Below, in pieces: positions 9,822-43,572 of a stretch of DNA of 64,000 nt. The DNA is taken from NCBI RefSeq assembly GCF_038025025.1, contig NW_027117340.1:558001-622000 (forward strand), read 5' to 3'. The notes under the pieces were generated by a model that was not told the origin of the DNA, ran no database searches, and was given only the letters and a program-made list of their open reading frames with translations. A program made the translations under genes and the position numbers. The DNA is from Phyllosticta citribraziliensis. Its lineage: Eukaryota. Numbering within the stretch: position 1 is the stretch's first letter; the number at the start of each line of letters is the position of its first letter.

Positions 9822-9823
9822 GG

Positions 9824-9853
<30 letters not shown>
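9822..9853. repeat. (GGCA)n microsatellite
   Basis: ggcaggcaggcag... tandem array. Confidence 0.9.
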
Positions 9854-9857
<4 letters not shown>

Positions 9858-20000: not shown

Positions 20001-23000
20001 GGTTGGTCGGCCTCTTTTTTCCTTGCAAAGATGGAGGCCATGGCTGGTTGGTCGGTCGCTTGCTTCCTTGTGAGGCCTCGCGTCGCACCGAGGCACCACA
20101 CATTTGTCAAGATTGAGGACATGGCCTCCTTCCCGATACACAGACATGAACCGCCGGACGAGGTGGTGGGATCACCGAGGGCTTTTGACGCCAGCCATGA
20201 GTGGCTGTCCAGTCAATGGTCAGTTGGTCCGACGGTCGGCGGGTCGACTGACTGAATGCTCTCCCCTATTTGCGCCCGGCTCTCGGTCGAGGGGAACACC
20301 TGCTCCTCTTTGTGCAGTGCGATGGGTTGTGTGTAGTAGCAATGGTGGCAGTGCGTGCGTGTGTGCCGCAAGCCAGTCAGCCATTCAAGCGCCCGTCTGC
20401 TTGCTTGTTGCGCATCTCCACTGCAATGCCTCCCTCCTTACATGATGCCTCGGCAGGCCATCATATCCAGGGCCCTATCACCACGATCGGACTCGTCTCG
20501 CCCACATGGGCTACCTCAAGTCACCTGTCCGTCGCTTGCTGTGTGCCAACCGCCCCCCTCCTCGCCCACAGACGCAAGAAACGTCGGATCGCGCTCGACT
20601 AATTACCTACAACGCCTGTGCTCAACTTACATACATACCACCCTCCGACATGTTTGCATGCACGCCGGCCGACATGAAAGGACTGATACGCGATCGAAGA
20701 GCTGCCAGTGGTTGGCACGCTGCGCAACGCGAGTCGACGCGTGTTCCTGACTTGCGACACGCCTCGGTCCGCCCTGCCCTGCTCGCACTGTACCGTTCTG
20801 GTAACCCACGATGCCTAGGGCGTGCAGTGCTCACGGTCCTGGACAATGGGTATGTACGTATGTATGTGTATGCAGATGTAGATGTATACCACCCCACCAT
20901 CCCATCACCCTTCTTTCTCTCTCGTCGTATCCTTTGCCCCCTCTCCTTTTCTTCCTTTTCTTTTCTTCTCCTCGCTTCACCTTCTCTGCCCTTGCACTCT
21001 CTCTCCTTTCCTTGCCTAGTCTCTTCTTTTACTCCTCTTTCGTCCCTCCCACCTCTTGACTGCACCGGGTGCCTGCCATGCTATGCCCTGCGCCGCAACA
21101 CACAACCTACCAACCCATACACTTTTGCCGTCTTTCCGTTCCGGTGGCTGGCAAGCGCTTCCCCGCTGTACTTCTAGGAAGAGCTGTGAGGGACGTCGTC
21201 ATGTCGCAGCGTAGCGTCTTGTGGTGTGTCATGGTATGGCTTTGCTTGCTCCCCCTGTGTCTCGGTCCAGTAGATCATCTCTTGCTCTCATTGTCACTTT
21301 GAATGCTTCTTGGACGATATCCTTGCTCTCCCGTAATCCCGAATTCAGAATAGAGAACCAAGTTTCTGAATTCTCCCAAATGTCGCCCGAGCAAACACAC
21401 AACCCTACCTACCACAAGCCCCCTTTCTCGAACCCTTCCATTGCCGCCGCGCATCTGCACGCACTTGCGTCATGCGCACATACCCCCACTGATCGGAAGC
21501 GATGGACCGCCGGCCGGTCAGAGACTTCCTCGATCAATCTCGCTGCCGACCTCCTGCGTGACTGCCATGCTGCCGCACATACATGCGCGAGAGACGTAAG
21601 GGCAGAGCGGCACTCACTCACTCTATCGCCAATCCACCAGCCACCGCACCACCGCACCACCGCGCCAAAGAGTAGACGGGTAGATAAGGGATAGGTAAGG
21701 TAGGTATATAGAGCAAAGCGTTCGTGGATGGGTGTGTGGGTAGCATGGCAGGGTAGGTGGCGGAACGAGTCAATTGCACACACCACGCGCGCGCGAGCCA
21801 GCACCAGGCAAGCACCTTCCTATGTACGGACCATCGTCTCTGACGTCCCACGCTGCATGGCGCAACCTTTTTCTTCTTTTTTTTTTTCCTTCTTTTTTTT
21901 TCTTTTCGTCGTCGTCGCCATTGTCAACCGGTCGCTCACTGCTCTTGGCCCAGCCTCTCTTATTGCGCTGCCTCACTGGACCATACATTTACACACCACA
22001 TGCCCGCGCCTTACTGTACGTACGTACTGTGCGCCCACACACGCGCTCGCGCGCGCAGAGGCTACACGGCAGATGCGATCACCCCACTTGCTGTCCCGTT
22101 CGACTCGCTCAGTCAATTGGTAACTGGCCGAATGACTGGCTGAGTGGGTGGCCGTCCCAAGCCCCAATTCGAGTGATTGGCTGGGCCTGCTTTCTTTCTC
22201 CTCGTCCTACTCTGCCATTAGCTTAGGTAGCAGGTTAGTCAATCCGACTTACCCCTCTTCTCGTCCTCGTTTAGGTAGGTAGGTAGGTAGATATGTATGT
22301 TGGTGCATGGAGGGGTGGGCAATGCTATTGGCAATGCACCACCAAGGCATGTTGCTGGGCTTCTTCTCCGGTTGCTTACTGAATGCCTCGAGTTTTTCTT
22401 TTCTTTTCTTGTTCTGCTCACTTTTCCGTCTTCACGTCCACTTGCTTATCTGTCTTTCCCCTCCTTTTCTTTCTTTCTTTCGAATTGGACCAATGTGCGG
22501 ACGGACGGACGGACGGACACATCTCTTGATCTCGATCATACGGCCAACTGGTTGCCTAGTCAGCCAGCGGCGATTCTCCAATGCTTTGTCTCTTTGCCAT
22601 TATCCGGGCCCGGTTTTGCGTAGTTTCGCGCAGCGTGGCGTCGTGTGGCGCCCAGCACGAGGGAAGCAGTTCGTGAGGTAGGTGGTGGTGGTGGTGGTGT
22701 GGGCATTGTAAACGTCGAAGGAACCAATCGAACATCTTTTTTCTGGTTTCTCGTTGATCGCACTTGCTTTTTCTTACGTCGACTACGGTCGGTGGATGTC
22801 ATGTGGGTTTCGTTGATTTGAGGGTGGGTGATATTCGCTCTCGAGTGGATGGAGGCGACTTGAGCACTTGGAGCAGGAGCACGAGTAGCTTTGCCGATGG
22901 ATATCATTTCTGGTGGTGAAGTGGTTGTGGTGTGATGATGATCCAGCTTTTGACACTACCTTCTCGTACACTCTTGCTTGAAAGCGCGCCTCGTGCGCCT

Positions 23001-23042
23001 TCCTTTTTCTTCTCGGGTCTACTTGCTGGAGGCTATGTGGAA

Positions 23043-25241
23043 TCAAGAAAGAAAGCACTTCCGCACATGCATCCTCGCAACCTCATATCCAGTCTGGAAT
23101 TGCGTTGCCCCTGCTCTTCCCATATCCACCTCAATCTTCTCAAACAATCTCCGCTCAACACTGACAATGCCAGCCAGAGCCTTGCAATCTGCCTGCCCAA
23201 CCAAATCCGACTTGGCAACTGCATCGTGCAATTCGACAAACGCCTTGGCCATGCCCAAGAGCGACGCATGACTCTCAACCGGTCGCATCGACAAGTGCAG
23301 CATGTCGAGCGCAAACGCATTTGGCCACCGGTCGAGCACTTGCTTCAGCAGAGAAGGAGGCTTCGACAGGCCGTCTGGGACCCGCTGGAGGATGCGCAGG
23401 CCTATCTCGACGAGCCCGCAGTCGCCGTGCTTGCGTACCTCGTCCATGCCTGCCACTCCGTCCGCAATGCTGGCGAAACCGTAGTAGCTGCGCAGCAAAC
23501 GCACGATGGCGCAGGTTGTATCGTTGGCTGTGCGCGCCGGGATTGCAACAAAGTCTTCGAGGAGACTTACATGTGCGAACCACAGCGGAATGAGAGAAGA
23601 GAAGACGGGCCGCACTCCCGGAGAGACAGAAAGCTCGAGGTCCGTACTCGAGCCAGAGAGGTCGAATTGCCTCGCCTGAGCAAGGACAGGGTAGTCGACA
23701 CTGACATCCTCCAGCTTTGCAGTGACGGATGGGGCAGACGGCGCTACAAAAGAGAGATAGGCGTGCGAGCCGTACGTGCCCGCGTCGAGACTGTCAATCC
23801 ATTTGCGAACAACATCCATCTCGGCCACGGTGAAGGAGCCAAACATCTTGCCGCCCCAAGATAGCGCATGCATCAGACGGCTATTCTTGCTATCGCCCTT
23901 GCGCACCCATGGCTTCCAATTCGCCAGCTCCCGCAAGAATTCCTTTTGTCGCTGTTCGGATGCAAAGCTTTCGGGCGCCAGCCAGTCCGTCAACGTGCGT
24001 CCACCCACTTTGATCCGGCTACCGCAATGGATCTTGCCCGACGCTTGCGCTTTGCCTTGCATCATGGTGAGGAGCTCATGATTCCATTCATTTCGGAGGA
24101 GTGGCATTGTAGTCGTGGTGTTTGCGTCAGGGGGCGATCCCCCTAAGCCACTTGAAAGACAGTAACCCGCCTGGACACGCTTCCAAGCGCGTTGCATGGC
24201 TTCACGACCATCGATTTTGCCTATGTGGTCAAGGTATTTGACGACAATCTCCATGGCCATGGCCGTATGTCCCGAATGCGAGTTGTCGATGCTGATGTGC
24301 AGGAAAAAGTAGTACGGATCCAGCTTGACCTCGTCGAGCTCCTTGGCCGCCTTCATCGTGTCCAGCGTCAGCAGCTCAAAGTGCATGTTGTACCCCAGGA
24401 TCTCTGGCAAAAAGTCGTGCGGGAAGAGAGAAATGAGGAGCTGCGCCACTGCGGCCTTCCATGGCAAGAAACTGGCGTCGAGTCCGTGGCCGGGCTGAAT
24501 GAAGTCAGCCGAAGAGGCTTCCGGCAGACGCGCGCCGGCTTCTTCGAGAAGCTTCTTGTACAGGTGTACGTGGTGCTGCTCCAGATTTCCGTCGCCATAC
24601 TCCTCCGACATGACTTGCCATGCGCCCTTGGTGACGTGGCGGAGAGCAAACGGCGTCGTGACGCGGTGGATGTGTCCAAGCCATGCACCGTCGACCAGCT
24701 TCAGGGGAGCAACTCGCGCGAGCCAGTCTCGAGCTTCGTCCTTGGTACCAAAAAGCTCTCTTCGTCCTCCGCCCTTGCGGCGTGCAAGGTACGTTTCCCA
24801 TTCGTCTGCGACAATTACGTCTTGTTCCTGAAGGAACGTGCGTAGCTCTTCTTTGCTGTATCGTTCCAGGGACAGAATTGATCCTTCTACCCGATTTTTT
24901 TCTCCGCAGATTGTCTCAGAGAGCAGACAGATGAGTGTGTTTCTCGCCAGCGGCAAGACATCTGGAAACTCCTCAAGGTTCTGCACCTCGTGGTACAGTT
25001 TCTTGTATAGTCGCAACTGCTCGTATTCGGACGCCGAAGGTTCTCTTGAGCTCCACTTCAACACATCTGGGTCTTTAGACTCCTGTTGCTCATGAGTACT
25101 TCTCAACGCCGCTCGCCTAATCTTTGGGTTCTTGTAGAACCGGACTGATCGTGCGTATTTTAGGAAAATAGGGGTAGAGATGTATGCCGTGGCGTACCCC
25201 AAGCAGGCCGCAGTAATGATGAGTAATAGATTGCCGAACAT
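23043..25241 (-). CDS. Heme-oxygenase-like diiron oxidase (HDO / iron-containing redox enzyme family), ~732 aa, N-terminal hydrophobic anchor, apparently intronless
   Basis: First ATG is at 25241 (the ORF-track start is TTG). Candidate metal-ligand set: LVDGAWL, SEEYGDGNLEQHH (E-x9-H), MHFE, FLHISIDNSHSGH (H-x3-D-x2-H), the pattern of HDO enzymes such as the SznF central domain. N-terminus MFGNLLLIITAACLGYATAYI. Confidence 0.8.
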   Translation of the reverse strand: MFGNLLLIITAACLGYATAYISTPIFLKYARSVRFYKNPKIRRAALRSTHEQQESKDPDVLKWSSREPSASEYEQLRLYKKLYHEVQNLEEFPDVLPLARNTLICLLSETICGEKNRVEGSILSLERYSKEELRTFLQEQDVIVADEWETYLARRKGGGRRELFGTKDEARDWLARVAPLKLVDGAWLGHIHRVTTPFALRHVTKGAWQVMSEEYGDGNLEQHHVHLYKKLLEEAGARLPEASSADFIQPGHGLDASFLPWKAAVAQLLISLFPHDFLPEILGYNMHFELLTLDTMKAAKELDEVKLDPYYFFLHISIDNSHSGHTAMAMEIVVKYLDHIGKIDGREAMQRAWKRVQAGYCLSSGLGGSPPDANTTTTMPLLRNEWNHELLTMMQGKAQASGKIHCGSRIKVGGRTLTDWLAPESFASEQRQKEFLRELANWKPWVRKGDSKNSRLMHALSWGGKMFGSFTVAEMDVVRKWIDSLDAGTYGSHAYLSFVAPSAPSVTAKLEDVSVDYPVLAQARQFDLSGSSTDLELSVSPGVRPVFSSLIPLWFAHVSLLEDFVAIPARTANDTTCAIVRLLRSYYGFASIADGVAGMDEVRKHGDCGLVEIGLRILQRVPDGLSKPPSLLKQVLDRWPNAFALDMLHLSMRPVESHASLLGMAKAFVELHDAVAKSDLVGQADCKALAGIVSVERRLFEKIEVDMGRAGATQFQTGYEVARMHVRKCFLS

Positions 25242-26618
25242 GACGAACTTCCGCGCAAAAGAATGACAAAGGAGGCGAGGCAAGCAAGCCTGGGAAAAAC
25301 AAATATCAGCAACGACAATGCCAGAACGTAGTCTGAAGTGAACAGGACAACCGATCTCAACAAAATTAGCCCGCAGTCCTTGACTCAAGTAGTCTTTTCG
25401 AAGCCTAGATGACTCCCTTCACTCCTTCCTCTCCATCCCCGACCTCAACTGACCAGCCCACGACGTCTCGGCTCACCAAGCCAGCCCTCCGACCACCCTT
25501 CGAGCTCCGCCATTCCTCTGTGCTTACAGCGGCTGCCTGTTCATCCACTGCACTGCTCTCTGTCGCAATGTTCCCGCTTCAGCCGTACATGTCTCTGATG
25601 CTCCTCGGGGATACACGGTACGGTTGCAGATGCAGGGAAGGCGGACGGGCAGATGGAGGTAGTGCAGGCGATGAGCGCGGGCGGGCATTGAAGAGTGACA
25701 GGCAGGCAGTGAAGTATTCTCGACCTGTGATGCCTGACCTTTGTTGTCCTGCCATTTCGAGCATCGCTCGTTACTTGGTAAGAATGCAAAGGTAAGCTAC
25801 ATAGATAGTTTACAGAACTCACACGACGCATCAGCATGGGCGTGCTCACATACCATCTCGGCCGTTCCGTGGGGACTGCATGTCCATCGACAGCGGTAAG
25901 GGTCGCACACACATGTCTGAGCGCCAGGGCTGACTCGGGGGGCCAACTCGATCCCCTTCACGCACCTCCTGCCCCTATACCAAGAGAGGAAGGTCGGATC
26001 AGGTCCGCTGCGGAGGCATGGTAAGCTGCGAGGTGCCTGCGTCCAAGGCAGCAATCGGCGGGAAGGCAGATGGGCTCCTCCTGCAGAGGCGAGGTGGTGC
26101 GTGGACGGGCTGGACCGCACGTCGTCAGTGAAGGATTTCTGTCGTGACTTGCTGACTACGCGGATGGCTGAAAAGGGACAATGGTGTGCTTGCGAGGGCG
26201 AGTGGGTTTGGGGTTTGTTGCGCGGGTGGAAAGTGATTGCGAGCGTGGGAGGATTAGGGGTGGTGGTGATGGGCTGGGAAGTGGTGGACTACTGTTCGTA
26301 GGTAAGGGGAGTTAGTGTCGGTAATTTTAATGGGTGGTTTTGTCGAGAATGCTGCCATACAAACAAATGCATATGCCACCGAGACACTGATTTTACCAGA
26401 GTTCTGCTGGCACAGTGGATATCGAGAGAGATGATGCAATAGAGGACACTCCCTAAGCACAATCATGGCAGTAAACAACAGTTTTCCTAGCTTCATCTGT
26501 AGAAGTGAATGAATGCTCCCTAGACATACATAGCCACAGTACCACGAGTTATCGTTCTTTTGAAACCAAATGTAGCAATTCAAAAACAAAGAAATTCGCA
26601 ATCTCAGGGCAAGAATTC

Positions 26619-27956
26619 CTACAATCTGGCCTTGACCACGCCAATCTCCTCTGCCACCAACTGCCGCTTGCTCAACTCCACCACAGGCGCCGGCTTCTTG
26701 GGCACCATCGTCTCCAGCATCATCGGCCGGGGCTCCAAGTCAAGCAGAGCCTCCTCGACCAACGCAGCGACGTCACCCGCGCATCCAAACGACAACGACC
26801 ACCCCGCGCCGCCCTGGCCATAGCTGTGCACAATGCGGCTTGGTGCCGCGTCGCCCTCTCGCCGGCGCAGCTCGCGCTCCACGCGGACGTTGCGCTCGCG
26901 GAACGGCCGCAGACCCTGTGCGAGGGGGTAGTCGGGGTCGACGCGGGCGTGCTTTAGATCAGGGAGGAACGCCTCGCAGCGAGCACGCATGCGTCTGATA
27001 ATCGGCGAGTCGAGGGTGAGGTCGAGCTCATGCTGGTGGGACTCGGCGATGCCGCCAATGAGCAGTATATCGTCATTGCGCGGGACGAGGAAGACGATTT
27101 CATTCGAGTCGTGCACGGCGTCGGCAGTGATGGTCAGCGCGGCGTCAAGTTTGGGAAAGTCTTGTCCGTTGTTGACGACGCGGATGAGCCCGCCGCGGAT
27201 CGGGTAGCAGGACTTGTCGCCTGCGATTTCGGCGCCTGCGAGCCCCGTTGCGTTGATAATTACGTCGGCGGCGAACTCGGCGCGCAGAGCGTGCTCTTGA
27301 GCGAAGAGGTCGCCGTGAATGGTGCGTGTCGTGACCTTGGCGCCCTTGGAGACGACGAGGTCTTTGAGGAAGGCCATGCAGACATCGGTGTCGATGATCG
27401 GGGCGAGGTGTTCGTAAGCGTCGACAGCGCCGTAGTTTGCGTCGACGCGGCGCTCCTTGATGATGGATGCTCCCCGCCTGAAGCCACGGATGCCGCTGGC
27501 CATGATCTCGAGCATCTTGGACATTTGCTCGGCGTCTTGCTCGATGGGGACGGGGAAGAAGAAGTCTGCCCCCTTCATGCGGACCCCTGAGAGCTCCGAC
27601 AGTGACTTGGATGCTGCAATGGCATCCCAAATGTGATAGGCAACCATGCACCAGCGTTTGGAGTGTTGGAGAGAGATGGCATCGGTGTGCTGGCCGCAGA
27701 CGGCGGGAGGGAACTCCCAGAGAGCGCCCGCAATTTGGGATGTGAGGCGTTGCTTCTTGCCATAGGACGCCCACTCCTTGGCCAGAATGTTTACATGGTA
27801 TCCTTTGTCGAGAAGGGTCCAGGCGGTGATGAGTCCAGTGACTCCTCCTCCCACAATCAAGACTCTGGGAGAAGACGAGGTCGGCGTGTGTAGAGGGGTG
27901 GGAAAGGGAGTCAGGTCTCTCCAGAAGATCAAACTTTCACCCTGTGAAACAGCCAT
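26619..27956 (-). CDS. FAD-dependent D-amino-acid-oxidase-family oxidoreductase with a PTS1 (-ARL), intronless
   Basis: Rossmann motif VLIVGGGVTG, plus TSQIAGALW, IINATGL, YPIRG, GLRPFR and HSYGQGGAGWSLSFG (DAO C-terminal signature). Ends ...VKARL*. Confidence 0.88.
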   Translation of the reverse strand: MAVSQGESLIFWRDLTPFPTPLHTPTSSSPRVLIVGGGVTGLITAWTLLDKGYHVNILAKEWASYGKKQRLTSQIAGALWEFPPAVCGQHTDAISLQHSKRWCMVAYHIWDAIAASKSLSELSGVRMKGADFFFPVPIEQDAEQMSKMLEIMASGIRGFRRGASIIKERRVDANYGAVDAYEHLAPIIDTDVCMAFLKDLVVSKGAKVTTRTIHGDLFAQEHALRAEFAADVIINATGLAGAEIAGDKSCYPIRGGLIRVVNNGQDFPKLDAALTITADAVHDSNEIVFLVPRNDDILLIGGIAESHQHELDLTLDSPIIRRMRARCEAFLPDLKHARVDPDYPLAQGLRPFRERNVRVERELRRREGDAAPSRIVHSYGQGGAGWSLSFGCAGDVAALVEEALLDLEPRPMMLETMVPKKPAPVVELSKRQLVAEEIGVVKARL

Positions 27957-28938
27957 TGTAGGGTACCGAATTGAAGATGAATGTGATTTGAGACAAGAAG
28001 ACAACAGTGTAGTCTGGGTTTACAACAAAACATCAGTCTCCAACCAGTTCAAAGACATTCAAGCGTTTATGTACTTACAGCCCCTTCTCTGCTAATAACG
28101 CAACTCTGGCTGGATTTTCATCACGACGAGGGCCAAATGTGCCGATTCTGTGGCTTGGGACTGTTGAATGTTCCATGTAGCCCAATCCTTCCGACACTGG
28201 AGACGTGTCGCTGACACCTCCGCCATGGCGACGATGCATGACAGAGGACTGGGGGCCGAGCCGGAGTGTAGAGGACCATTTGCAGAAGCCCGGGTCGGCG
28301 GTGTAGTGGTAGCCTAGAAGCCCTGGTCGAATTTCTGTTGGTTTGGTAAATTGTCTCCTCGCGAGGGAGCGGAATCCAAACCACACGAGGGACACAGTCA
28401 TCACTGCGTCGCTCGACGGCTTTCTGTCCCACCAGTCTCATCGCTAGCGTCGACGGTGCGGAGAAAAAGCAAGGAGTCGAGAGGCGGAGTGCCATGTAAT
28501 GGTAGCAGTAGGAGTGGTTGAACGCATCCTGCGGAGAATCGACTAGTCAAAAAAGTCTTAGGTCTGGCCTTGTCTGCCCTAAGACCTGCCAAATTAAGCT
28601 TGTTTGCACCGTGCAGCTCGAAGGACGTTGGAGCAGGGTGTCTCGCGGGCCGCACGATCCGCCCCGCCTTGGCGGATCAGTTCCCCAAACAGACAGGAGG
28701 AGCATCTGCCGACTAAAGGGTGCTCGTAACGCTCGGCAATTTCAGAGATGCAGCTTATCTCAGTTGGCCCCTTCCAAAACCCCTGCGCACATCGTTTGCC
28801 GGACGTGACTCAAGCTTCCTGTCCTGGGCTAGCGTCAGCACGCCGGACCCATGACCGGTAAATATCGTTTGTTTGGCGCGTCCTTGTGCTGTCCAGCGCT
28901 CCCTCTCTGCACGTTTCTCGATTCCTCCCCTCTGCCTC

Positions 28939-30329
28939 ATGGCGAGCCCTTGCCCCGAGCCTGGCCTGCCAACGCCGACTTTGCGCCAAAGTGAGGAGAA
29001 GGCCGAGAATGGACTCATCAGTGCAGACAACGACGCCGAATCAGCAGAGGTCGACGTCAATTCCGCCTCACTCCCACCTCCCCCTCCAGATGGCGGCGTC
29101 CAGGCGTGGACCCAAGTCTTGATGGGACATTTGGTCCTGATCAACGGATGGGGCTATCTCAGTTCCTTCGGGCTCTTCCAGTCGTACTACACGACTTCTT
29201 TGGGCGCTTCACCCTCGGCCATTAGCTGGATCGGCTCCCTCCAAATCTTTCTCGTCTACCTTGTCGGCACCTTTTCCGGCAGAGCTCTTGATGCCGGCTA
29301 TTTCCATGTCGTCCTTGGCCTTGGGTCGTTCTTGCAAATTTTGGGAGTCTTCATGACGTCCGTTTCATCGCAGTACTGGCAGCTTCTCCTCGCCCAGGGA
29401 GTATGCAAGGGACTTGGTGATGGCTTGGTATTTTGTCCCACAGTCTCTCTAGTGGCAACGTACTTCTCCAAGAAGCGCTCGTTGGCCATGGCCTGCACTG
29501 CGTCCGGAGGTGCCACCGGTGGCATAATCTTTCCCGTCATTGCCCAGCAGCTGCTTCCCAAGATCGGCTTCGGTTGGACTGTGAGAATCATGGGGTTTGT
29601 CATCCTCTTCAACGCTTTCGTCGTGCTCTTGATTGCGCGCGTCCGACTTCCACCCAGAAAGACGGGACCTCTGGTCGAGTGGAGCGCATTCAAGGAGCCT
29701 TCTTACACGCTGTTCTGCGTCGGCATGTTCTTCAATCTTTGGGCAGTCTACTTTGCCTACTTTTATGTGAGTCTGCTCCTTCAAGGCGTACAACCAGCAT
29801 CTGATGGCATTCGCAGGTCAGCACGTTCGGCAAGAAGATCATCGGTGTCTCTTCTTCGACTTCGTTGACGATTCTCCTGGTGATGAATGCGGTCGGAGTT
29901 CCCGGGCGGCTGGTCTGCGGCCTCACGGCGGACCGGCTGCTTGGGCCGGTCAACACGCTCATTCCAGTGGCATTTTTTGCCGGAGTCTTGTTCTACTGCT
30001 GGGCAGCCGTGTCTTCGCTGGGAGCCCTTTTTGCTTTTTGCATCCTTTACGGATTTTTTGGAGCCGGCATTCAAAGTCTCTTTCCCGCATCCTGCGCCAG
30101 CTTGACGACGGATCTCAAAAAGATGGGAGTGCGGACAGGCATGTGCTTTTCGGTCGTATCGATTGCGTGCTTGACGGGTCCGCCAATAGCTGGAGCGCTG
30201 ATCCAGCAGCACAATGGCGGATTCCTGTATGCACAAATGTTTGGAGGGTCAGCATTCATGGGCGGCACGTTGACGCTGGTCGCAGCCAGACTCGCCAAAA
30301 GTGGACTGGAGCTCAAGAGCAGGATGTAA
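28939..30329 (+). CDS. MFS transporter, monocarboxylate porter (MCT/Mch) family
   Basis: PPPDGGVQAW N-terminal motif, GYLSSFGLFQSYY, SWIGSLQ, YFSKKRSLA; intron 29767-29816; many hydrophobic helices. Confidence 0.9.
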
Positions 30330-30724
30330 TCAAGGAGGGAAGAAGCTGGGCGCATATAGACTTGCATGGGTTCGGCATGATGCTTTAGACGGAGGAATGC
30401 CAAACTTTGGGCCGATAACAAGGGACAGTGGGTCGGCTCATGATGACCAGTGCCGGTGGGTGGTGGAGGGAGTGTGTGCGAGTGGGGAGTTCAGTTGGCG
30501 TCGCACGAGGCGAGGTGAGGTGAGGCGAGGATGGCTGCAGGGAAGCTGCCCTGCCGTCCAGTGGCAGCCGGCCCATTACTCTCTGGCCCTCTGGCCCCCG
30601 CAGTCCTACGAACCATCCATCTGCTCAGGTCGCATCTGGTTGCATATTGTCTATTTAACGTCCTGTCGTCAGCTCGCAATGAACGCTCCTCATTTCCATC
30701 CTCTCGCTTTACGCCCATCGAGCC

Positions 30725-31510
30725 ATGGCTGACACCGCCTACACCAAAGAGACGCGCAACACCGTCCGCCGCCATCGCGAGCGCGGCCAGTATGACTTTG
30801 CGACGGTCCACTCGATTGTCAACCAGGCCTCGATCCTGCACGTCTCCTTCCTCCCTACAGACCCTTTGGAGGATCCCTTTCCAACCATCCTCCCCATGAT
30901 TGGTTCCGTGGGCCTCTTCTCCAACCCTGACAACGATCCTGGCGCCCAACCGCTTGACCTCTATATCCATGGCCACAGCGCCTCGCGTTTGATGCGTCTA
31001 CCCACGGCGCAGGGCTTGGAACAGGTCCCCGTCTGCGTCGCTGCCACTATGCTCGACGGCATCAAGCTGGCTCTTACGCCCTTCAACCACAGTTGCAACT
31101 ACCGCAGCGCTGTGCTCCATGGCTACGCGTCGATCGTGACAGACGAGGCAGAAAAGAGCTGGGCCCTGGCACTCATCACCGACGGCCTCGTGCCCGACCG
31201 TTGGGATAATTCGCGTGTCCCACCCACCAAGGCTGAAATGACGAGCACGACGGTGCTAAAAGTTTCCGTCGTCAGCGCCAGCGCCAAGGTCAATTCCGGC
31301 GAGCCCGGCGACGACCGCAAGGACCTCAAGGACGACGCAGTCACGTCATCTGTGTGGACCGGAGTCCTGCCTGTCCATGAGCAGATTGGCGCTCCGCAGC
31401 CCAGCTCCACTAACAAGGTCGCCAAAGTGCCGCAGTATCTGGATCAGTGGTGGCAGGCAGAAAACACCAAGCGCGAGACATATGCCCACGATGCCTCTCG
31501 GCCAAAATAG
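30725..31510 (+). CDS. Split-barrel flavin-nucleotide-binding protein (pyridoxamine 5'-phosphate oxidase-like / NimA-like)
   Basis: 261 aa intronless ORF: NTVRRHRERGQYD, ILHVSF, LYIHGHSASRLM, VCVAATMLDG, HSCNYRSAVLHG, SAKVNSGEPGDD, VWTGVLP. Confidence 0.85.
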   Translation: MADTAYTKETRNTVRRHRERGQYDFATVHSIVNQASILHVSFLPTDPLEDPFPTILPMIGSVGLFSNPDNDPGAQPLDLYIHGHSASRLMRLPTAQGLEQVPVCVAATMLDGIKLALTPFNHSCNYRSAVLHGYASIVTDEAEKSWALALITDGLVPDRWDNSRVPPTKAEMTSTTVLKVSVVSASAKVNSGEPGDDRKDLKDDAVTSSVWTGVLPVHEQIGAPQPSSTNKVAKVPQYLDQWWQAENTKRETYAHDASRPK

Positions 31511-31790
31511 ACTAGACTCGATTTGGTGTCATCCATTTTCCTTGCTCCTGTGTGCTATCAAGCTACAACCAAGACTTTAACCGCCAGACTTTTGGCGTGG
31601 ATAGACAACAAGCAGGGAGCACATTGGGAAAGTCAGTCAAGCTACTCTGGGCTACAAAATTCACCAGACTACTCAGGAGCATTCAAGAGTTTTTACCGAG
31701 CTATGAAAGATAGCATCAGGGAGAATTCCATCACCAATCTGCGAGAATCCATGATCGTACACGCTATGAATTTGATCATTAGCCTCGGGC

Positions 31791-33067
31791 CTAGTTTCCG
31801 TCCGGATATGCTAGCCTATCAACCTCCTGCCATTCCTTACTCTGCGCATAGATGCTGCGAATGGGCGACAACAACCGATTGAAAGCTTCAATCGTGGCCT
31901 CCTTCAAGTCTTCGGGACTCACTTCATCTTTCACAAACGCCTCTTCCAACTCTTCATACGAGGAAAAATGCTTCGGCGCTTCTTCACCAAATACCGTCCA
32001 CGCCGTGCCACTCGGCGCGTCTTTTGCACAAAATGGCCTCTGATTGCTATTCACTTCCTTGCCTTCGGCCGTATATAGTCCAGTCTGTCCAGCAAGCCGT
32101 TCCACACGCTGCACGCTAATGGGCAGGAGGACGTCGCGCACAAGGCCCAGCACGCCATTATGCTCAACCTGGGCAGCGGGGCAGGCTGCGGCGTCAATCT
32201 TGGCGCGAACGACGTGCGGAGCGTCGAGAAACTCAATTTTGGTGGCGGCCGGCTTGGAAGACGACATTTTGAGCCCGTCCAGTCCGGCAACCATTGTGTT
32301 CATGAGGTGCTCGCGCTGGCGGTATCCGAGGGCGGGGATGAAGTGTTTGGCGTGCTCGAAGAGGCCGGTCTGCGGGGTCTGTCAGTGTCCGACTTTGCAC
32401 GGGACGGGAGGAAAAGACACACCTGATCGATGCCGCCATACTGGACATCCAAATCCAAGTACACCTCGCTCAAGCTTTGGTGCACGGCACACAGCATCGG
32501 ACTCAGCATCTTCGTCTCGGCAACCTCATCGCTCGTATCCCTCGCATCCTTTTGCGTCATGAGCGCACAAAGGCGCTGAGTATCCACCACAAAATCCTTC
32601 TGATACGCAATGCTGCTCTCGGCAATGAAATTGACGTGCGCAGGCGGGACCCCCAGCGCCGCCAGGATCGCGCGTACGAGGAAATCGTAGTAGCGCTGCC
32701 GGTGCGCGACGGTTTCCATGCTGTGCACGTAGTTGACGAGGAAGCCGTACACGTCGAGGTAGTAGACTGTCACGTCGAGCCCGGCGCGCAGGAAGTCGAT
32801 CAGTTTGGCTAGGGGCACAAAGTAGCCAACGTGCGCTGTGAGAGCCGCATGGCATTGGTTAGCCAACCTGGTTGATTTTGCTTCGGATTGGATGGCGGAA
32901 GGGGACCTACGCTTTCCTGTCGGCGTGGTCTCCCACGCCAGCTTCAACGGTGTCTGGCCTTCTGCTTCTCGCCGGGCCAGCAGCGTGCGGAGTGAATCAC
33001 GGTCAGCATCGCTCAAGAAGGCCTGCTGGCGTGTAATGAGGTTGAATTTCTCCTCGGTGGGCAGCAT
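31791..33067 (-). CDS. Tyrosyl-tRNA-synthetase-like protein (class Ic, eukaryotic type), divergent amino-acid pocket, ~382 aa
   Basis: ATG 33067; introns 32910-32836 (in frame) and 32422-32370. The spliced product has TGKPHVGY (HIGH motif), YLDLDVQYGGIDQ, HLMNTMVAGLDGLKMSSS (KMSKS motif) and an anticodon-domain-like C-terminus ending AYP. Confidence 0.88.
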
Positions 33068-34606
33068 CGTAACTGGATTGGTAAGAAGACGAAGATGCAA
33101 AACGATCAATGTCTAGACGAAGCCGAGGTGAACTTGACAAGTACAGTGCTTCAGAAGACCGGAGCGGAGAGGATGGCTGGTCCTTTTACATAACTGCTAC
33201 TTATTGGACGCGCTTCTTATACACGTCCGGGTGTTCTTTGGAGCAGTTGACCGTTGAATAGCGTTGAGGACCAATGCCGCGCTGCTGGCGACCGTCTCCG
33301 GGCCTTGGAGCTTCAGCCCTCATCCCTCCACCTTTCCGCACTTGATCGCACAAGCGCAGCAGCAGCATCCTCCTTCCTTCTGCCTCCTCATCGACCAAAA
33401 GTCGCTACATGGGCGGCTTCAACCAAGCTGCATGGCTCTTTACCGTCTTTTACGCTTATTTTACGATGCACACGTAACCGTTCTGTACTGTACAGGTTGC
33501 CGGACCTAGCTCCTCGCCATCTCGCTCCCTGTCTTGCTCTACGGCAGCTGTGCTACGTCCCATTCCGGTGTGCGTTCAATGTTGCCGACGCAGCTGTCAG
33601 TCAGTCAGATCTCTTCCACGTATCAACTCCTCGTAGGGGGCGGACGGCATGAGGGGGCCAAATCCTTCGTTCCTAAATGTTGCATACCATTACGCAGCTG
33701 GGCGGAGCAAATCAGGAGATTATTTGCCGGGTGATTGTCTAAATGGATGGCGTGCGCGGTCATGGTTTGCGAAGAATAGAATCGGACAACAAGAAATGTG
33801 TTTGTGTGGTTACCGTGGCTGACGCAGGGACTGCACTGCACGACTTGCGGAGGAACAGTCAGTCATGCATACAGGCAGCCAGACGCCACGGTAGGTGTGA
33901 AAGTACGAACGCTCCTTGGGCATTTGATTGGATGGACTCCCGCACGACCGTACGTCTTGTCTCACTCTTCCCCGCGGAAGGAATCGAAGAAGGAAGGCGA
34001 AAACTCTGCAGCACCTGCGGGTGGCGCCGGCGCGGCGTTAAGAGAGCGATGCAAAGAGGCAGGTGGTGTTGATGGCAAGATTCGGCCCCCAAGTCGCACG
34101 ATGCGTGGTCCGTCGGCGGACGTGGCCGAGACATACGGGACTTGCGGAGAAGAGCGAGAGATGTTGACGCAGTGAGTGTGATTTGAGGCATGCGGTGAGC
34201 ATCTAGATCCTGTGGTCATGTCCGCTTGTCACTTTGTGGGGATTGTTGCGACGTGCTTGCTGACTGGCTAAAAGGTTGATTACCTGCAGGGTACATGTTC
34301 CTACACGCTGAGTATGCCAGCATCTAATTTTCGAAGCCCAAAGACTTGATGCACTGTACATGCATGCTGTACATACTCCACCTCTTGAGGAACGACCAGC
34401 CCCTTCTACATGCCTGACTGGCTTAGCCGTAGGTGACGAGAAGGATGCCTTCTCACTCTCGGGGCATCTCTCCATTTTGAACTGCCGAGGGTGGTGTGTC
34501 TTGGCTTTCTCTGACGGCAAAGGCTGATCTATCACTTCGTCTCTTGCGCGCTTTCACTGGCGTTTGGACTTGTTGGAGAAAGGAAGTTCGCAAGTCTCCC
34601 ATCAAG

Positions 34607-36437
34607 ATGGGGACTTTTCCAACTCTGGGTGAAGCGCCCAAGAGTCTGACTGGAAGCATTCACAAGATGCCACAGAAAGGGGGCAGCGTGGCCGCGGAGG
34701 CAGACGCAATCGCAGTGATTGGCGAGAAGAATACCGATGTTGAAGAGGCCCAGCTGGAAGAGCCGCCCAAGAAACTTCATCTGCCCTTGGTATTGACGTT
34801 AGCCGGTGCAGCCTTTCTGAATGTGAGCCATGTCTCCTGATCAATGAGCTTTTCCGCTAAATGCTCCCTCCAGACGCTGTCGGTGCAATCCGCCGTTATC
34901 ATCCTCCCCAGCATCGCTCGAGACATTGGCATCCCCTCGGAGCGCCAACAATGGATCATCTCAGCCTACTACCTGACGTTTGGCTGTTTTTTGCTAGTGT
35001 GGGGCCGGCTTGCCGACATCTTCGGACGACGCCTCATCTTCATCTGGGGCTCGGCCTGGGTAACGGCTGTGACCGTCGTCGTGCCTTTCGCGCCAAACGA
35101 AATCGTCTTCGACGTCTTCCGCGGCTTGCAAGGGCTCGGCGCTGCTGCCAATGTCCCGACAGCCATTGGCATCCTAGGCGCGACGTTTTCGCCAGGCAAG
35201 ACCAAGAACTACGCGTTTGCGATTTACTCGGCCGGCTCTTCGTGCGGGTCTGTTTTGGGCAACATCTTCAGTGGCATCATCGGCCAGTGGCTGTCGTGGA
35301 AGTGGATCTTTTGGGTGCTGGCCATCATGGCTGGCTTGGTCACGGTGCTCGGCCACTTTCTTGTCCCACTCGAGTCCAAGGTCGAAGATGAGGAGGCCGC
35401 CGCCAGGCCCGTTGTGCACGTCGACTGGATTGGCGGCACACTCATCTCGAGCGGGCTCATGCTGCTCAATTTTGCATTGACGCAGGGCAACGTTGTGGGA
35501 TGGGGCACGTTCTGGATCCCCGTCCTGATTGTCTGTGCAGTGCTGATTGTAGGCGTGTTCGTCTTGTGGCAGTGGTATCTGGAGAACAAGACGTCTAGAG
35601 CGCCCCTGATGCGCGTGTCCATCTTCCACAACACGCGCTTCAATGCTGCGCAGGTCATTATGGCCATGTTCTTTGCCGCGTTCAATAATTATCTCGTCTA
35701 CGCCACTTACTTGTAAGCTCCCTCCCCCAAATCGTGGTGGATGTCAAAAAGAGGGCACCATTCCGCTAGAACGCCTCGCTCGCACCTCACCGCAGTGGCA
35801 GCTCCTGGCCAGGGCGTGACACTTCTTTGGTACCTGCCGTGAAATTATTATACTGACGTACAATGCGCACAGTTACCAAGACTATCTCGGCCTCAACGCC
35901 ATCCAAACTGCGCTGCGCTTCATCCCGACCGGGATCATGGGATTCGTAGGCAACTTCATCGCGGCTAAGCTGCTCTCGCGCGTCCGCGGGACCTACCTCC
36001 TTATCTTCAGCTCAGCATGCGTGGCACTTTCTTGCCTCCTCAATGCCGTGCCCATTCCACCCAGCACGTCGTATTGGGCCTACGGCTTCCCTGCCATGGT
36101 TGTCTCAACCCTTGGCGCCGACATCTTGCACCCAACCCTCACCCTCTTCACCGCGCAGTCCCTGCCGCCTGCCGATCAAGCCCTGGGCGGCGCGCTCATA
36201 ACATCGGTCCTCCAGATCGGCCGTGCCATCGGGCTCGCAGTCGCTACCGTTGTTCAGACGTCTGTGGCGCGCGATGAGGGCGGCGCTTCAGGCAGCGAGG
36301 AGGTCGCGGGGTCGGCGGCGCTGCTCGACGGCATCAGGGCAGGCCAATGGTTCAATTTCGGATTAGCTGTTGGTGCGTGTGCAGTCGCAGTCATTTTCTT
36401 CAACAGCAAGGAAAAGGTCGGCGCGGTGAAGAGGTGA
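34607..36437 (+). CDS. MFS drug:H+ antiporter (DHA2-like) efflux transporter
   Basis: Introns 34823-34873 and 35713-35872; motifs WGRLADIFGRR, RGLQGLGAA, WKWIFW, DWIGG. The start could instead be the ATG at 34667. Confidence 0.88.
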
Positions 36438-37559
36438 GGATGGATGATTCGGTCTGCCGTTTTGCAAGTGTTGCATGGACTTTCTTGGCCGACTGGCAAC
36501 GCGGGACGGCCCGAGCCGCCTGGTATGTCGATCCTTGGACGTTGCAGGGTTTCTTGGAGCATTCTTCTCCTCGGAGTCTCCTTTCTATATTTTGCATTCG
36601 CAATTTTCTTCATTCACACATTCCACGCAGTTTAAAAGATAATGCATCTTGTGGAGAAAAGTCCTGAGAAGCGCACCGGAACCTCGAAATCCAGAAGCCA
36701 TTGCAGTGGTCAGGCATGATAGGACAGAAACCCATCGGTGTCAAACAGGAGTCTCAGCCCGCAATGCCCTTTGTTTCTCTCAAAGCAGCAGTCCTGGTCT
36801 CTCAGTGACGAAATATCTGGCCCCGGTTGCCCTGCCAGCTTCAACACGCTCGTGCTCGAGTTAGGCAGGTGAACACACGTCAAATTGCGCTTTCCAGGGT
36901 TCGACAACGTACCTTGCACAGGGCTATTCTCGGTGCTGCCTGTATTCGAAGGACGTATTCTAAAATCTGACACGAATCTGTCAACTAGGCCTAGATGCAT
37001 GCAAGTCTCGGAAGAGGTGGTGTTCGAGGCTGGTAGTCTTTGCGTGCGTGCACAGGCAAAAGACGCGATATTGCAATTGTTCGCTCGGCTGGATGCTTTT
37101 TTTGCCGGCAGTGCAACTAAATGGGGGCTAATAGGAGTTGACAGGCTGACTACTGACATGCATGCATGTATGTATGCAGACTGACACACGGACGACCGAC
37201 GACGTCCCTGCACGAATCCTTCCACATTACACCTGCCTGTTCCTTTAGGCCAAGAAAGAAGCATTGTGGCTGCAAGGGGCTTATGGACCCTGGTCTTCCA
37301 GGAAGTGTGGGGTGCATCATCGGGTCAGCACGAAGGATTCACCGACAGGAGACAATCTGACAGTCACTGACAGGCAAAAATCACGACAGATGGGAATTGC
37401 TAACACAAATTACAGTCATTGGTGGATCTGACCTCCATCTTCGCGTGCCATTTTCCTTGATGAGAAAAAGGGAAAGACTGTTTTGTGATTTGCTGCCTGC
37501 ATGCTGACAATTGAGTAGGTAAGAAAGTATTGCAATGCCGCACATTACCACGGGCATCA

Positions 37560-38597
37560 TCACGCTTGAATGCTCCCTTCGCGCTGCACCGCTGCTGCCG
37601 CCGCAGAATCCTCCCTCGCCCACTGCTCCTTGAGCTGGTGCATCGGCCGCAAAAAATACGACAAGTAGTACCTCTTTCTTTTTCCATCCTCATGCTGCGT
37701 AACGCGATGCAGGGGCGAGTGAAAAACGCCCTTACTCAAGCGCTGCAGCGAATCCGCCACATTGACAAGTGCACAGCCAGGTTTGGGCGCGGCGTAGGCC
37801 CAGCGCTGCGTCGACGGGAGGAATACGTGCAGCCCCCACTCGGTGTAGAAGAGCAGCGTGAAGGTGCCGCTGTCGGTGTGCTTGTTCTCAACGACGTCGG
37901 CGGCCTGCGCAACTGTCGGCTCGTAGATGAGCTTGAGCCCGGTGTCGCTGGTGAAGGCATGCGAATGGTGGCCAAGGACGATGTCGGGATCGTAGGAGGG
38001 GTGGACTTCTTGGGCCAGCGAGTGGAAGAGGCTGCCGAGCAGAGACAGGCTGGCGATGTGGCAGACTTCGTTGAAGCGCTTGATCAGCTCTGTCTTGTCG
38101 GCGATGGAGGTGGGGAGTTCAATAAATCCGCCGCGGAGGAGCTCGTCGTCCGCCATCTGTGGGCGGTTTAGTATGTCAATTTGCAGCTGTCAGGGAGTAG
38201 GTAGGAAGATTTGGATCTTCATACTTCGAATGTCTCGTCATTCTCGCTCTTCTTGTACCTGTCCACACGCAAGAGTCAGTGGTGAATGGCGCTTGCGGTG
38301 CACTGGAAAAATAGGACGAAATTCACTTGCATACCCGCGGTCCTGCGACGGCAGCTGGTCCGTTCTTACGTCTTTCTCCTTCTCCGCGGCAGACTGCGCA
38401 AAGTAGCGGTCTGAAAGGGCGTACATCTGATCCAAAGCATCCAAGACACCCTCTCTGTAGTTGGAAAAATCAAGGTGAAAAATCCCCGGCGACTGGGCAG
38501 CCTCAAAGAGCTTGCGCTGCTCGGCGGCGTCGCGGTTCAGGATCTTGAGAATATCGATAGTGGCAAGAGCCGCGACGTCGGTGGGTTGATCTGTCAT
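37560..38597 (-). CDS. 2-oxoglutarate/Fe(II)-dependent oxygenase (IPNS/DIOX family)
   Basis: Exons 38597-38335, 38258-38225 and 38156-37560 keep the frame. N-terminal LATIDI..GIFHL (DIOX_N-like); facial triad HTD...H (HTDSGTFTLLF, SPLHRVT); RYYLSYFLRP. Confidence 0.88.
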
Positions 38598-39299
38598 GAT
38601 TGCCGAGACTATGTGTTGTACTCAGTGTAAATGAATAGTCGATTGCAGCGGTTTTTAGTTTGGGGAGAATTGATATGACGACCGACATCAAGAGCAGTGT
38701 GGGAACAGAGCTGGCATTTAACTGTTCCAACTACTGTCAAGCTGACCAATACAAGGGTCGTACGGTGCCGAGCTCTGCATAGCAATTGGGGGCCAGCCCT
38801 GAAGCGTTCATTCAACTCATACATCCGAGTTGAACGAGATGATTGTCCCGATTGGTCTGACTTCCTGAGGGACAGCTTCTTGAGCCCAGCTGCGGTTCTG
38901 AATGACTGCTCCTGAGTCTTTCCATAGTGATATATGATGACAGGGGCTATGATGCCAGAATATGAAAATTGTCTTGCATCTCATGTCGCAACTGTGTCTA
39001 ACTACAAAAGCGCTCACGCGTCGGACTCGGCGTTGGAATCATCCAAAACGTCAATATGGACAGCATTAACTTCCCTAAACCACAACTTAGGATGACTTGA
39101 CACAAAGTTAAGAACCAACCATCGACCAAATATCAGTACACATTTCAAAGGACTCCTGAAAACGTTTCACACTTTCATCAAGCCTCGTCAATCATTGCGG
39201 AACCTTTCGAATGATGGGGAGGTTCGGTGGCTCAGGTACAGGATTGAATGCAGGAGCTTCGATTTCGCGGAAGCTACCTCAAAGTCAGTGCTCAACTCT

Positions 39300-43030: not shown

Positions 43031-43483
43031 GGCGGATTTAGGTCCGAGGACGCAGCTTATCTAAATTGCGTGCATTAACTCCGAGCCATGGACGTCCAAT
43101 CCAAAGATCTCTCGAATCGCCATCCCGAGTCTTGACTGACTTGCTGTGTTGTTTAGCATTTTAACCTCATAGACTCACTAAATCGATAAGTCTAAATTGT
43201 AAGCTGTGTACCTGCATGGTAAATTTGCAAGGATAGCGCTTGCCATCTCTTCCCGAGACACCGATCGCCAAGTTGACAAGATCTCCACGGCACACGCCAA
43301 AAGCTGAAGATTGCATCGAAGCAATCGTATAGGTATACAATGGACCTTCCAATGAATGTTGTTTGCAAAAAAAGCTGTAAAGAAGGCATACGAGAGCCCG
43401 CAACTACGGGTTGCTGTTGTTTGTGCGGGTTTCTGCAATTAATACAAAATATATAATTAACATTCAGTGTCTTTCTCAACAAG

Positions 43484-43572
43484 TCTTCGATGGTCTAGTG
43501 GTGATGATTTCCGCTTGTCATTACAGCGTAGTGCAAGCGCGGGAGACCGGGGTTCGATTCCCCGTCGGAGAG
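43484..43572 (+). tRNA. tRNA-Asp(GTC) with a 17-nt intron
   Basis: Acceptor stem TCTTCGA/TCGGAGA with discriminator G, D-arm TGGTCTAGTGG, anticodon GTC at 43517-43519, intron 43521-43537, T-arm CGGGGTTCGATTCCCCG. Confidence 0.93.

Follow-up and report, generated by a model that had tools for sequence, protein, structure and literature searches.

We analysed a 64,000-nucleotide stretch of the genome of the fungus Phyllosticta citribraziliensis (contig NW_027117340.1, positions 558,001 to 622,000 of the forward strand; hereafter the window), in which an original prediction, made from the letters alone, had placed a biosynthetic cluster of seven contiguous genes. All seven predicted gene types are present and contiguous at 23043-38597, as judged by Pfam matches among the 24 stop-to-stop open reading frames (ORFs) of the 23-39 kb region. 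They encode a haem-oxygenase-like diiron oxygenase (HDO), an oxidoreductase resembling D-amino-acid oxidase (DAAO; hereafter the DAO-like protein), a split-barrel flavoprotein, a paralogue of tyrosyl-tRNA synthetase (TyrRS), a 2-oxoglutarate (2OG) oxygenase and two transporters of the major facilitator superfamily (MFS1 and MFS2; Table 1). The predicted start is the stop codon of the HDO gene and the predicted end is the start codon of the 2OG oxygenase gene. Both of the divergent pairs that had been claimed were confirmed, namely the DAO-like gene with MFS1 and the TyrRS-like gene with MFS2. Our central finding is that three of these genes, encoding the HDO, the flavoprotein and the TyrRS-like protein, form a module that sequence comparison identifies as conserved across three ascomycete classes.

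Table 1. Gene models of the seven-gene locus, in window coordinates
Gene	Position	Strand	Details
HDO (PF14518, Haem_oxygenas_2)	23043-25241	-	single exon, 732 aa
DAAO-like FAD oxidoreductase (DAO-like)	26619-27956	-	445 aa; 5'UTR intron 28014-28078
MFS transporter 1 (MFS1)	28939-30329	+	446 aa; intron 29767-29816; Pfam MFS_1
Pyridox_ox_2 split-barrel flavoprotein	30725-31510	+	261 aa; PF12900; Anf3-related
TyrRS paralogue	31791-33067	-	382 aa; exons 33067-32911, 32835-32423, 32369-31791 (last includes stop codon)
MFS transporter 2 (MFS2), TRI12/DHA2-like	34607-36437	+	539 aa; introns 34823-34873, 35713-35872
2OG/Fe(II) oxygenase	37560-38597	-	297 aa; introns 38157-38224, 38256-38331

The gene models were built from spliced RNA contigs together with a scripted translation of the joined exons. 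The contigs derive from four runs (X1-X4) belonging to four studies and two organisms, the second organism being a related species with many substitutions. We took these runs to be RNA because their contigs lack the sequence between GT..AG or CT..AC boundaries and two contigs have poly-T loose ends; the runs are recorded as 'RNA?', and contig depth was left out of the ranking of genes. All seven genes are transcribed: canonical introns of five genes (DAO-like, in its 5' untranslated region (UTR), MFS1, TyrRS-like, MFS2 and 2OG oxygenase) are spliced out in contigs of the four runs, and the two intronless genes, for the HDO and the flavoprotein, are covered by contigs in the same four assemblies. 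The joint of the DAO-like 5'UTR intron is present in X1, X3 and X4, that of the MFS1 intron in X1 and X2 and, at a 1-nt offset, in X3 and X4, those of MFS2 in X1, X2 and X3, with the second found in X4 as well, and those of the 2OG oxygenase in X1, X2 and X3. Both TyrRS-like introns (75 and 53 nt) are absent from RNA contigs of X1, X2 and X3, as predicted beforehand. A single contig spans MFS1, flavoprotein, TyrRS-like and MFS2 together. For the HDO, one RNA contig is unbroken over 22306-25683, and the 3' end of the transcript is marked at 22465 by a poly-T loose end. The spliced frame of the DAO-like gene has stop codons upstream of its first methionine.

The locus had been described as lacking a polyketide synthase (PKS), a nonribosomal peptide synthetase (NRPS), a terpene synthase and a transcription factor, and this is borne out. 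Pfam scans found none of these domains in the 24 ORFs of the region, and neither they nor any other core scaffold synthase (dimethylallyltryptophan synthase and the like) occur among those ORFs, 124 ORFs of at least 130 residues outside the region and 128 ORFs of 60-129 residues in and around the cluster (29 more small ORFs at 13.6-17.0 kb were left out). Ten of the 124 outside ORFs have a Pfam match, every one of a housekeeping type (CBF/Mak21, CCCH fingers, Sel1, YVC1, Ras, PCMT, HAUS1, PH_20, BAR_4 and MBOAT), and none of the 128 smaller ORFs has one. The cluster is bordered by housekeeping genes on one side and by a stretch without recognisable genes on the other. Since no core synthase domain was found, rule-based finders that are keyed on such an enzyme would probably miss the locus.

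Synteny in other genomes was read from the order of NCBI accessions, whose numbers run along contigs, and conservation outside Phyllosticta was examined for the HDO, flavoprotein, TyrRS-like and DAO-like genes. The genes for HDO, flavoprotein and TyrRS-like protein (in that order below) have consecutive accessions in Penicillium cosmopolitanum (KAJ5409131/133/132), Naviculisporaceae PSN 640 (KAM7187847/846/845), Rhypophila decipiens (KAK4207119/120/121) and Rhypophila PSN 637 (KAM7183813/814/815). They lie within five positions of each other in two genomes of Phyllosticta citrichinensis (KAK8164390/387/386 and KAK8162951/948/947), whose homologues are 90-98% identical to the window's proteins and whose accession gaps fit the layout of the window, with MFS1 and the DAO-like gene between flavoprotein and HDO. 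Partial versions of the module also occur. The flavoprotein adjoins the TyrRS-like protein in Clathrospora (KAF1938424/425), and the HDO adjoins the flavoprotein with no TyrRS-like gene between them in Penicillium roqueforti, Penicillium psychrosexuale and the lichen fungus Ptychographa. A metagenome scan added two loci (L002 and L003) in which the genes for the TyrRS-like protein and the flavoprotein converge, as they do in the window, at 56-57% and 67% identity. The flavoprotein is the gene present in every conserved pairing. Because the adjacency is conserved in other fungi, the grouping of three of the seven genes is beyond chance; thus, of the proposed co-location of homologues, the part concerning the HDO, the Pyridox_ox_2 flavoprotein and the TyrRS-like gene stands outside Phyllosticta, whereas the relatives of the DAO-like protein are found in other taxa.

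The closest relatives of the TyrRS-like protein make up a small and patchy set: Phyllosticta, two Penicillium species, Rhypophila, Naviculisporaceae and Clathrospora, together with Macrophomina (two copies), Diplodia, Neofusicoccum and Orbiliales. Canonical TyrRS come next, with no more than 30-39% identity. In L002 (1-13104) and L003 (1-17682), the gene pair is a 3-5 kb islet of about 50% GC amid repeat DNA of about 30% GC, and L002 carries a remnant of a hAT transposase at 5800-6177.

A post hoc search of the promoter regions yielded the word TGGCCCC, which has one copy in each of five promoter regions (25939, 28765, 30592, 33654 and 38789) and an extra copy at 36818. At four of its sites the context is TGGCCCCC. 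There are nine matches in the window, six of them inside the cluster and three in the other 48 kb; the count over the whole window is not above that of shuffled sequences (mean 11.2). Of 3000 draws of five random intervals of the same lengths, 42 gave one or more 7-mers of equal rarity shared by all five intervals, and a single draw gave two or more. The word was not found in the metagenome loci L001-L003. We regard TGGCCCC as a candidate shared cis-element of the cluster's promoters.

Our preferred reading, to which we would give about an even chance of being correct, is that the locus consists of the conserved trio plus Phyllosticta oxidases and transporters, and makes an N-oxidised small molecule derived from an amino acid, with the substrate, product and acceptor being conjectural. 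The alternative that fares best against it, although we doubt it, is that only the trio is a functional unit, with unrelated neighbours in the form of the DAAO-like oxidase, the 2OG oxygenase and at least one of the two transporters. The consecutive accessions in four other species, with nothing between them, argue for this alternative, but MFS1 and the DAO-like gene stand between flavoprotein and HDO in three Phyllosticta genomes. Likewise, the pair in L002 and L003 stands alone in its AT-rich surroundings, while in the window all seven genes are found in the same RNA assemblies, the rare word TGGCCCC is in each of the five promoter regions, and the whole is an island bounded as described above. 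The DAO-like protein provides a further argument for separating the trio from its neighbours, as its nearest relatives belong to other taxa. An exhaustive search of representatives found 160 relatives at E <= 1e-30, and the ten best full-length ones include proteins of Diaporthe/Cytospora (Diaporthales), Apophysomyces (a mucoromycete), Candelaria (a lichen), Aulographum and several basidiomycetes; since the search covered a single representative of each 50% cluster, orthologues could be hidden.

The HDO matches PF14518 at residues 171-360 with 115 bits (gathering score 28.9). It consists of a predicted N-terminal helix, a diiron haem-oxygenase-like (HO-like) domain at about residues 69-376 and a second HO-like domain at about 517-732, and its AlphaFold model, made with 34 homologues, has a pLDDT of 77 and a pTM of 0.74. 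Compared via this model, residues 69-376 have HrmI as their best structural match (Z 19.9, root-mean-square deviation 3.4, 261 aligned residues), followed by RohS (Z 19.8) and SznF (19.2), with FlcD (15.3), CADD (12.4), PolF (11.4) and PqqC (9.6) below. The modelled fold is therefore closest to the N-oxygenases HrmI, RohS and SznF, which agrees with the prediction of an HDO of the N-oxygenating type.

The conserved residues are in keeping with this assignment. E213/E214, H224, E280/E289, H315, D319 and H325 are invariant in 34 HDO sequences, and E162/E169 are nearly so. This set of glutamate, histidine and aspartate residues fits an E-H-E-H-D-H diiron site, in which the first E...H stretch aligns with RohS by sequence and the other ligands are putative. 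HDOs of subgroup 1 are described as having an E-H-E-H-(D/E)-H metal site and a seventh carboxylate on auxiliary helix 2 (PMC13133933).

The fungal HDO and its bacterial counterparts HrmI, RohS and SznF share a Pfam family and a fold (Z 19.2-19.9 over about 250 residues), but sequence identity is only 12-18%, and the fungal protein, at about 730 residues, has an extra N-terminal helix and a second, ligand-poor HO-like domain. Sequence searches reflect this distance: phmmer found no solved relative of the HDO, and a profile search of PDB sequences gave only a local match to RohS (E 0.34). Foldseek, run with the whole 732-residue model, gave no match at E <= 0.001. A search of 185,579 prokaryote genomes with the HDO alignment produced 93 pattern matches and no relative, using two peptide patterns of limited sensitivity.

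Several additional observations concern this protein. Its second HO-like domain (window 23046-23690) lacks the set of metal-binding histidines and carboxylates, and the tandem form is unlike the solved bacterial HDOs that the fungal HDO matches. Modelled alone, the C-terminal third matches HrmI (Z 12.7), CADD (11.1), HamA (10.7) and TenA (10.0), and the top 20 rows are all HO-like. Residues 97-167 have a weak, non-significant likeness to the complex I subunit NDUFA5/B13 (E 0.08). In Orbilia oligospora, two HDO homologues (P0214 and P0217) are modelled as fused to part of a class I/II aminotransferase, its C-terminal half. Either the fusion is genuine or two gene models were merged, and an aminotransferase gene may thus lie close by.

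The flavoprotein was part of the original prediction as one more enzyme of the cluster; it is indeed present, but it is more than that, being Anf3-like and common to every conserved pairing. It matches PF12900 (Pyridox_ox_2) with 103 bits (cut-off 27), and among solved structures it matches Anf3 (chain 6rk0_A, E 9e-27 over 153 residues, 79-231 against 69-210) and 4ybn_A (E 3e-15). H82, which all 30 fungal homologues compared have in common, aligns with the histidine of the Y-W-H-G stretch of Anf3. Anf3 is described as a dimeric FAD/haem b flavocytochrome that receives electrons from ferredoxin, and its haem ligand is named as His70 (PMC6579470). If a two-residue offset in numbering is allowed for, H82 would be the counterpart of this haem ligand. 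The motif containing it is conserved between the fungal flavoprotein and the Azotobacter vinelandii protein (6RK0), whereas Anf3 is linked to Fe-only nitrogenase and acts as an oxidase, and the fungal protein is longer at both termini and has another genomic partner.

By analogy, the flavoprotein is likely the redox partner of the HDO. This suggestion is made because of the precedent of MboA and MboB: the mangotoxin HDO MboA is reported to depend on the reductase MboB, and a gene for an electron-transfer protein is present in about 40% of HDO clusters (PMC13725569). Here too the HDO gene lies beside that of a flavin-containing protein, and MboA needs MboB for turnover. However, MboB is a multidomain reductase with [2Fe-2S], FAD and NAD(P)H, whereas the fungal neighbour is a small Anf3-like split-barrel protein whose partnership we infer. 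A complex prediction of HDO residues 60-732 with the flavoprotein scored 0.00 and is uninformative on pairing.

A second alternative gives the flavoprotein a different task. The HDO would make a nitro compound, as RohS does in forming 2-nitroimidazole, and the Nim/Anf3-like haem flavoprotein would reduce nitro or nitroso groups, for protection or as a step of the pathway, instead of supplying the HDO with electrons. The three best structural matches of the HDO include RohS, but HrmI and SznF, which have other N-oxygenated products, match equally well. Relatives of the flavoprotein are annotated as 'NimA-like nitroimidazole reductase', yet these names are automatic annotations, and the protein itself reaches only 19 bits against the cut-off of 260 of the NimABCDEF equivalog. 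Further points in favour are that the flavoprotein pairs with the TyrRS-like protein even in places that lack a nearby HDO, a pattern not accounted for if it were simply the reductase of the HDO, and that a Clostridioides difficile preprint whose abstract deals with metronidazole, a nitro drug, mentions Anf3 24 times. Taking these together, we consider this explanation unlikely.

Returning to the preferred reading, its third component is the TyrRS-like protein. The tRNA-synt_1b domain is matched in two exons, with 38 and 46 bits, and the spliced product of 382 residues is identical to the public Phyllosticta citribraziliensis protein P0225. A second public model of 407 residues (P0224) reads through the in-frame 75-nt first intron (32836-32910), which the RNA of three runs removes. 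The best solved relatives are canonical cytoplasmic TyrRS, from yeast (2dlc, E 9e-68) and human (1n3l, E 1e-63). A cyclodipeptide synthase was also considered and dropped, given that tRNA-synt_1b and full-length TyrRS structures are matched over both domains. A search of the ESM Atlas with the paralogue returned TyrRS clusters only.

We compared residues between 24 paralogues and 79 canonical TyrRS, all of at least 300 residues, using positions of the human enzyme. At Y39, all 79 canonical sequences have tyrosine, whereas the 19 paralogues that cover the position have alanine (15), threonine (2), valine (1) or glycine (1). At Y166, tyrosine is again found in 79 of 79 canonical sequences, compared with cysteine in 23 of the 24 paralogues and phenylalanine in the other. 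At D173, aspartate is likewise universal among the canonical enzymes and is replaced by serine (17), glycine (5) or alanine (1) in all but one paralogue. These three positions are ones that we take to bind the hydroxyl and amino groups of tyrosine. The positions of Q170 and Q188 are retained, and the pocket of the window's protein reads A44, C168, Q172, S175 and Q190 at the positions of human Y39, Y166, Q170, D173 and Q188.

The motifs for ATP are also retained: the HIGH-type histidine is present in 19 of 19 covering paralogues, and the K, M and S of the KMSSS loop in 23, 23 and 22 of 24, with HVGY and KMSSS present in the window's protein. In the C-terminal P-x-D-L-K motif, by contrast, the aspartate that presumably reads base 34 of the anticodon is found in 77 of 79 canonical sequences and in 10 of 24 paralogues. 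The lysine-rich C-terminal tail of fungal TyrRS is absent from the TyrRS-like protein.

Comparison with curated equivalogs and a gene tree point in the same direction. The window's protein scores 145 bits on the NCBIfam model NF006330 (cut-off 220) and 71 on TIGR00234 (cut-off 113.8). All six paralogues tested, this protein included, fall below both cut-offs (117-175 on NF006330, and 53-91 on TIGR00234 for the other five), whereas five of five canonical controls pass (262-386 on NF006330). In the tree, the paralogues form a single clade (support 100/100), whose stem measures 1.31 substitutions per site and within which Phyllosticta groups with Penicillium and Sordariales and not with other Botryosphaeriales. 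This disagreement with taxonomy suggests either transfer or old paralogy. On this sequence evidence, the homologue is a remodelled TyrRS paralogue and not the housekeeping enzyme, and to this extent the TyrRS-like ligase that had been proposed holds up. Relative to canonical TyrRS (2dlc and 1n3l), it shares the domain order, the HIGH-type histidine and the KMSSS loop, but it has A, C and S at Y39, Y166 and D173, a long stem branch and no lysine-rich tail.

A protein of this kind might instead serve self-resistance. The HDO and flavoprotein would then make a tyrosine antimetabolite or an inhibitor of TyrRS, and the paralogue would be an insensitive spare TyrRS that sustains translation. Copies of aminoacyl-tRNA synthetases (aaRSs) within clusters are a known resistance device, and the paralogue is accessory, in that pairs of HDO and flavoprotein occur without it; conversely, L002 and L003 carry the paralogue with no HDO nearby. 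Although the paralogue retains the architecture of TyrRS, its ATP motifs and, in the window, the P-x-D-L-K aspartate, this anticodon-reading residue is lost in 14 of 24 paralogues, and the lysine-rich tail of the fungal enzymes is missing. Both residues at the positions that bind the tyrosine hydroxyl are replaced (tyrosine in 0 of 19, aspartate in 1 of 24) and the Y166 position is cysteine in 23 of 24, and therefore normal tyrosine recognition is unlikely. Six of six tested paralogues are also well below both TyrRS equivalog cut-offs. We judge self-resistance to be improbable.

The DAO-like protein matches Pfam DAO with 105 bits, and D-amino-acid and D-aspartate oxidases of solved structure are distantly related to it (E 1e-13 to 2e-15). 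Its last three residues, Ala-Arg-Leu (window 26622-26630), resemble a PTS1 signal for peroxisomes. Pfam domains DIOX_N and 2OG-FeII_Oxy are found in the 2OG oxygenase, and its H-x-D motif and distal histidine align with solved 2OG oxygenases. MFS2 scores 122 bits on MFS_1 and 40 bits on TRI12.

These genes raise the possibility of a catabolic or detoxifying island, in which an unusual aromatic or D-amino acid, for example one of a plant host, is taken up by the transporters and broken down by the oxidase and oxygenases. Oxidases of the DAAO family are typically catabolic, and solved DAAO and D-aspartate oxidase are the nearest solved relatives of the DAO-like protein, but an adenylating aaRS paralogue has no obvious role in degradation. 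The presence of two transporters and the lack of a core synthase and a regulator would suit such an island; however, MFS2 belongs to the TRI12 type of efflux transporter. Judging by their names, several of the carriers are associated with plants (Phyllosticta, Macrophomina, Diplodia and Neofusicoccum), yet the trio is found also in Penicillium, Sordariales and the nematode-trapping Orbiliales, and a patchy distribution with a gene tree discordant with taxonomy is typical of specialised metabolism. We hold a catabolic island to be no more probable than self-resistance.

The biosynthetic reading that we prefer would work as follows. The HDO, perhaps anchored to a membrane by its predicted N-terminal helix, would use its diiron site and O2 to N-oxygenate the amine of a substrate derived from an amino acid. 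The Anf3-like FAD/haem flavocytochrome would re-reduce the diiron site or, alternatively, process the N-oxygenated product. The TyrRS paralogue would still bind ATP and would form an acyl-adenylate from an aromatic amino acid other than tyrosine; we propose a substrate other than tyrosine because the pocket is widened where the para-hydroxyl of tyrosine would sit. The acyl group would then be passed to an acceptor, for which a small-molecule nucleophile, such as a hydroxylamine made by the HDO, seems more likely than tRNA-Tyr. In Phyllosticta, the DAAO-like oxidase and the 2OG oxygenase would prepare or tailor the molecule and the MFS proteins would export it. The product would be a small amino-acid derivative containing an N-O or N-N bond. 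It is plausible that the TyrRS-like protein is the bond-forming enzyme and that the product is an N-hydroxy, nitro or N-N compound.

The valanimycin pathway (VlmH/VlmR/VlmL/VlmA) and the hydrazine synthetases with MetRS-like domains are aaRS-assisted N-N/N-O pathways. They and the locus share the logic of a trio formed by an N-hydroxylating oxygenase, a reductase and an amino-acid-activating aaRS homologue. The differences are that the oxygenase is here an HDO and not a flavin monooxygenase, that the host is a fungus, and that the aaRS homologue is a remodelled TyrRS paralogue instead of a SerRS or a MetRS-like domain. What appears to be new is therefore the set of parts (the HDO, the TyrRS paralogue and the fungal host), in a logic that resembles that of the bacterial pathways.

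A second parallel is provided by engineered TyrRS of Methanocaldococcus jannaschii, variants of which account for many entries among the PDB matches of the paralogue. In these enzymes, we take Y32 and D158 to be the same two hydroxyl-binding positions, made small to accept para-substituted phenylalanines. The engineered enzymes are laboratory products that charge an orthogonal tRNA, whereas the changes in the paralogue are natural and conserved across a fungal clade. It would be a far-fetched extension, to which we give very little credence, that the paralogue is a natural counterpart of the orthogonal synthetases, charging tRNA with a non-canonical aromatic amino acid from the HDO-flavocytochrome pair for tRNA-dependent assembly of small molecules or targeted incorporation into protein, with that pair being the first dedicated fungal diiron N-oxygenase system.

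It is important to emphasize that a number of observations weigh against the preferred biosynthetic reading. The seven-gene extent is unsupported by sequence comparison outside Phyllosticta, and no trio-bearing species was among the ten closest DAO-like clusters that were looked up. Even the trio is not always together: no HDO lies within 1.7 or 6.2 kb upstream, or within 10 kb downstream, of the pair in L002 and L003, and three Orbiliales species (Arthrobotrys musiformis, A. megalospora and Drechslerella dactyloides) have the TyrRS-like gene on another contig than the listed HDO. Both partner families are very broad in fungi, with 726 matches at E <= 1e-5 among 8000 scored candidates for the HDO and 741 for the flavoprotein, and could have a general rather than a specialised function. 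The RNA contigs establish presence in the same libraries, not regulated co-expression. The window's TyrRS-like protein retains the P-x-D-L-K aspartate, so use of tRNA is possible. Finally, no Pfam domain of a VlmA-like transferase or of an aaRS-fused cupin occurs in the ORFs of the region; the TyrRS-like protein is a stand-alone protein with no fused cupin.

The claim that no characterised fungal cluster has this composition agrees with a full-text search of the literature, in which neither a fungal HDO nor a cluster with a TyrRS paralogue was the subject of any paper found, subscription journals and supplements being outside its coverage. The available text of the papers on RohS and FlcD has no passage on a fungal HDO (the string 'fung' occurs 0 times in the first and once, in a reference title, in the second).

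The surroundings of the seven genes have features of their own. To the right of the cluster, GC content is lower (0.50-0.53) over about 8 kb (38600-46500), and none of the ORFs there matches Pfam; RNA contigs are far shallower in this stretch than in the cluster, depth being unsuited to ranking genes. On the other side, 8000-23000 contains long ORFs with no Pfam match (e.g., 15030-16496, minus strand, and 18419-19822, plus strand) and has strong GC and AT skew. Within the cluster, spliced minus-strand transcripts are seen at 33100-34600 and 36700-37400 in run X1, with introns at 33594-33687 and 36839-36912. Pfam matches none of the ORFs at 33.1-34.6 kb and 36.7-37.4 kb, whose spliced translations look non-coding; the transcripts may be long UTRs or non-coding RNAs.

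The HDOs characterised in the HDO papers that we compared (including PMC13725569 and PMC13133933) are bacterial, to the extent that the accessible parts of these papers cover them. A broad fungal HDO family with a conserved flavocytochrome neighbour would suggest a way, open to testing, in which these unstable diiron sites regain their electrons in vivo. In the TyrRS paralogue, evolution has altered the positions that engineers mutate for unnatural amino acids. Knowing the substrate of this paralogue would lead towards a new metabolite derived from an amino acid, and a new biocatalyst could result. The trio also provides a concrete handle for searches in many fungi, plant-associated ones included.

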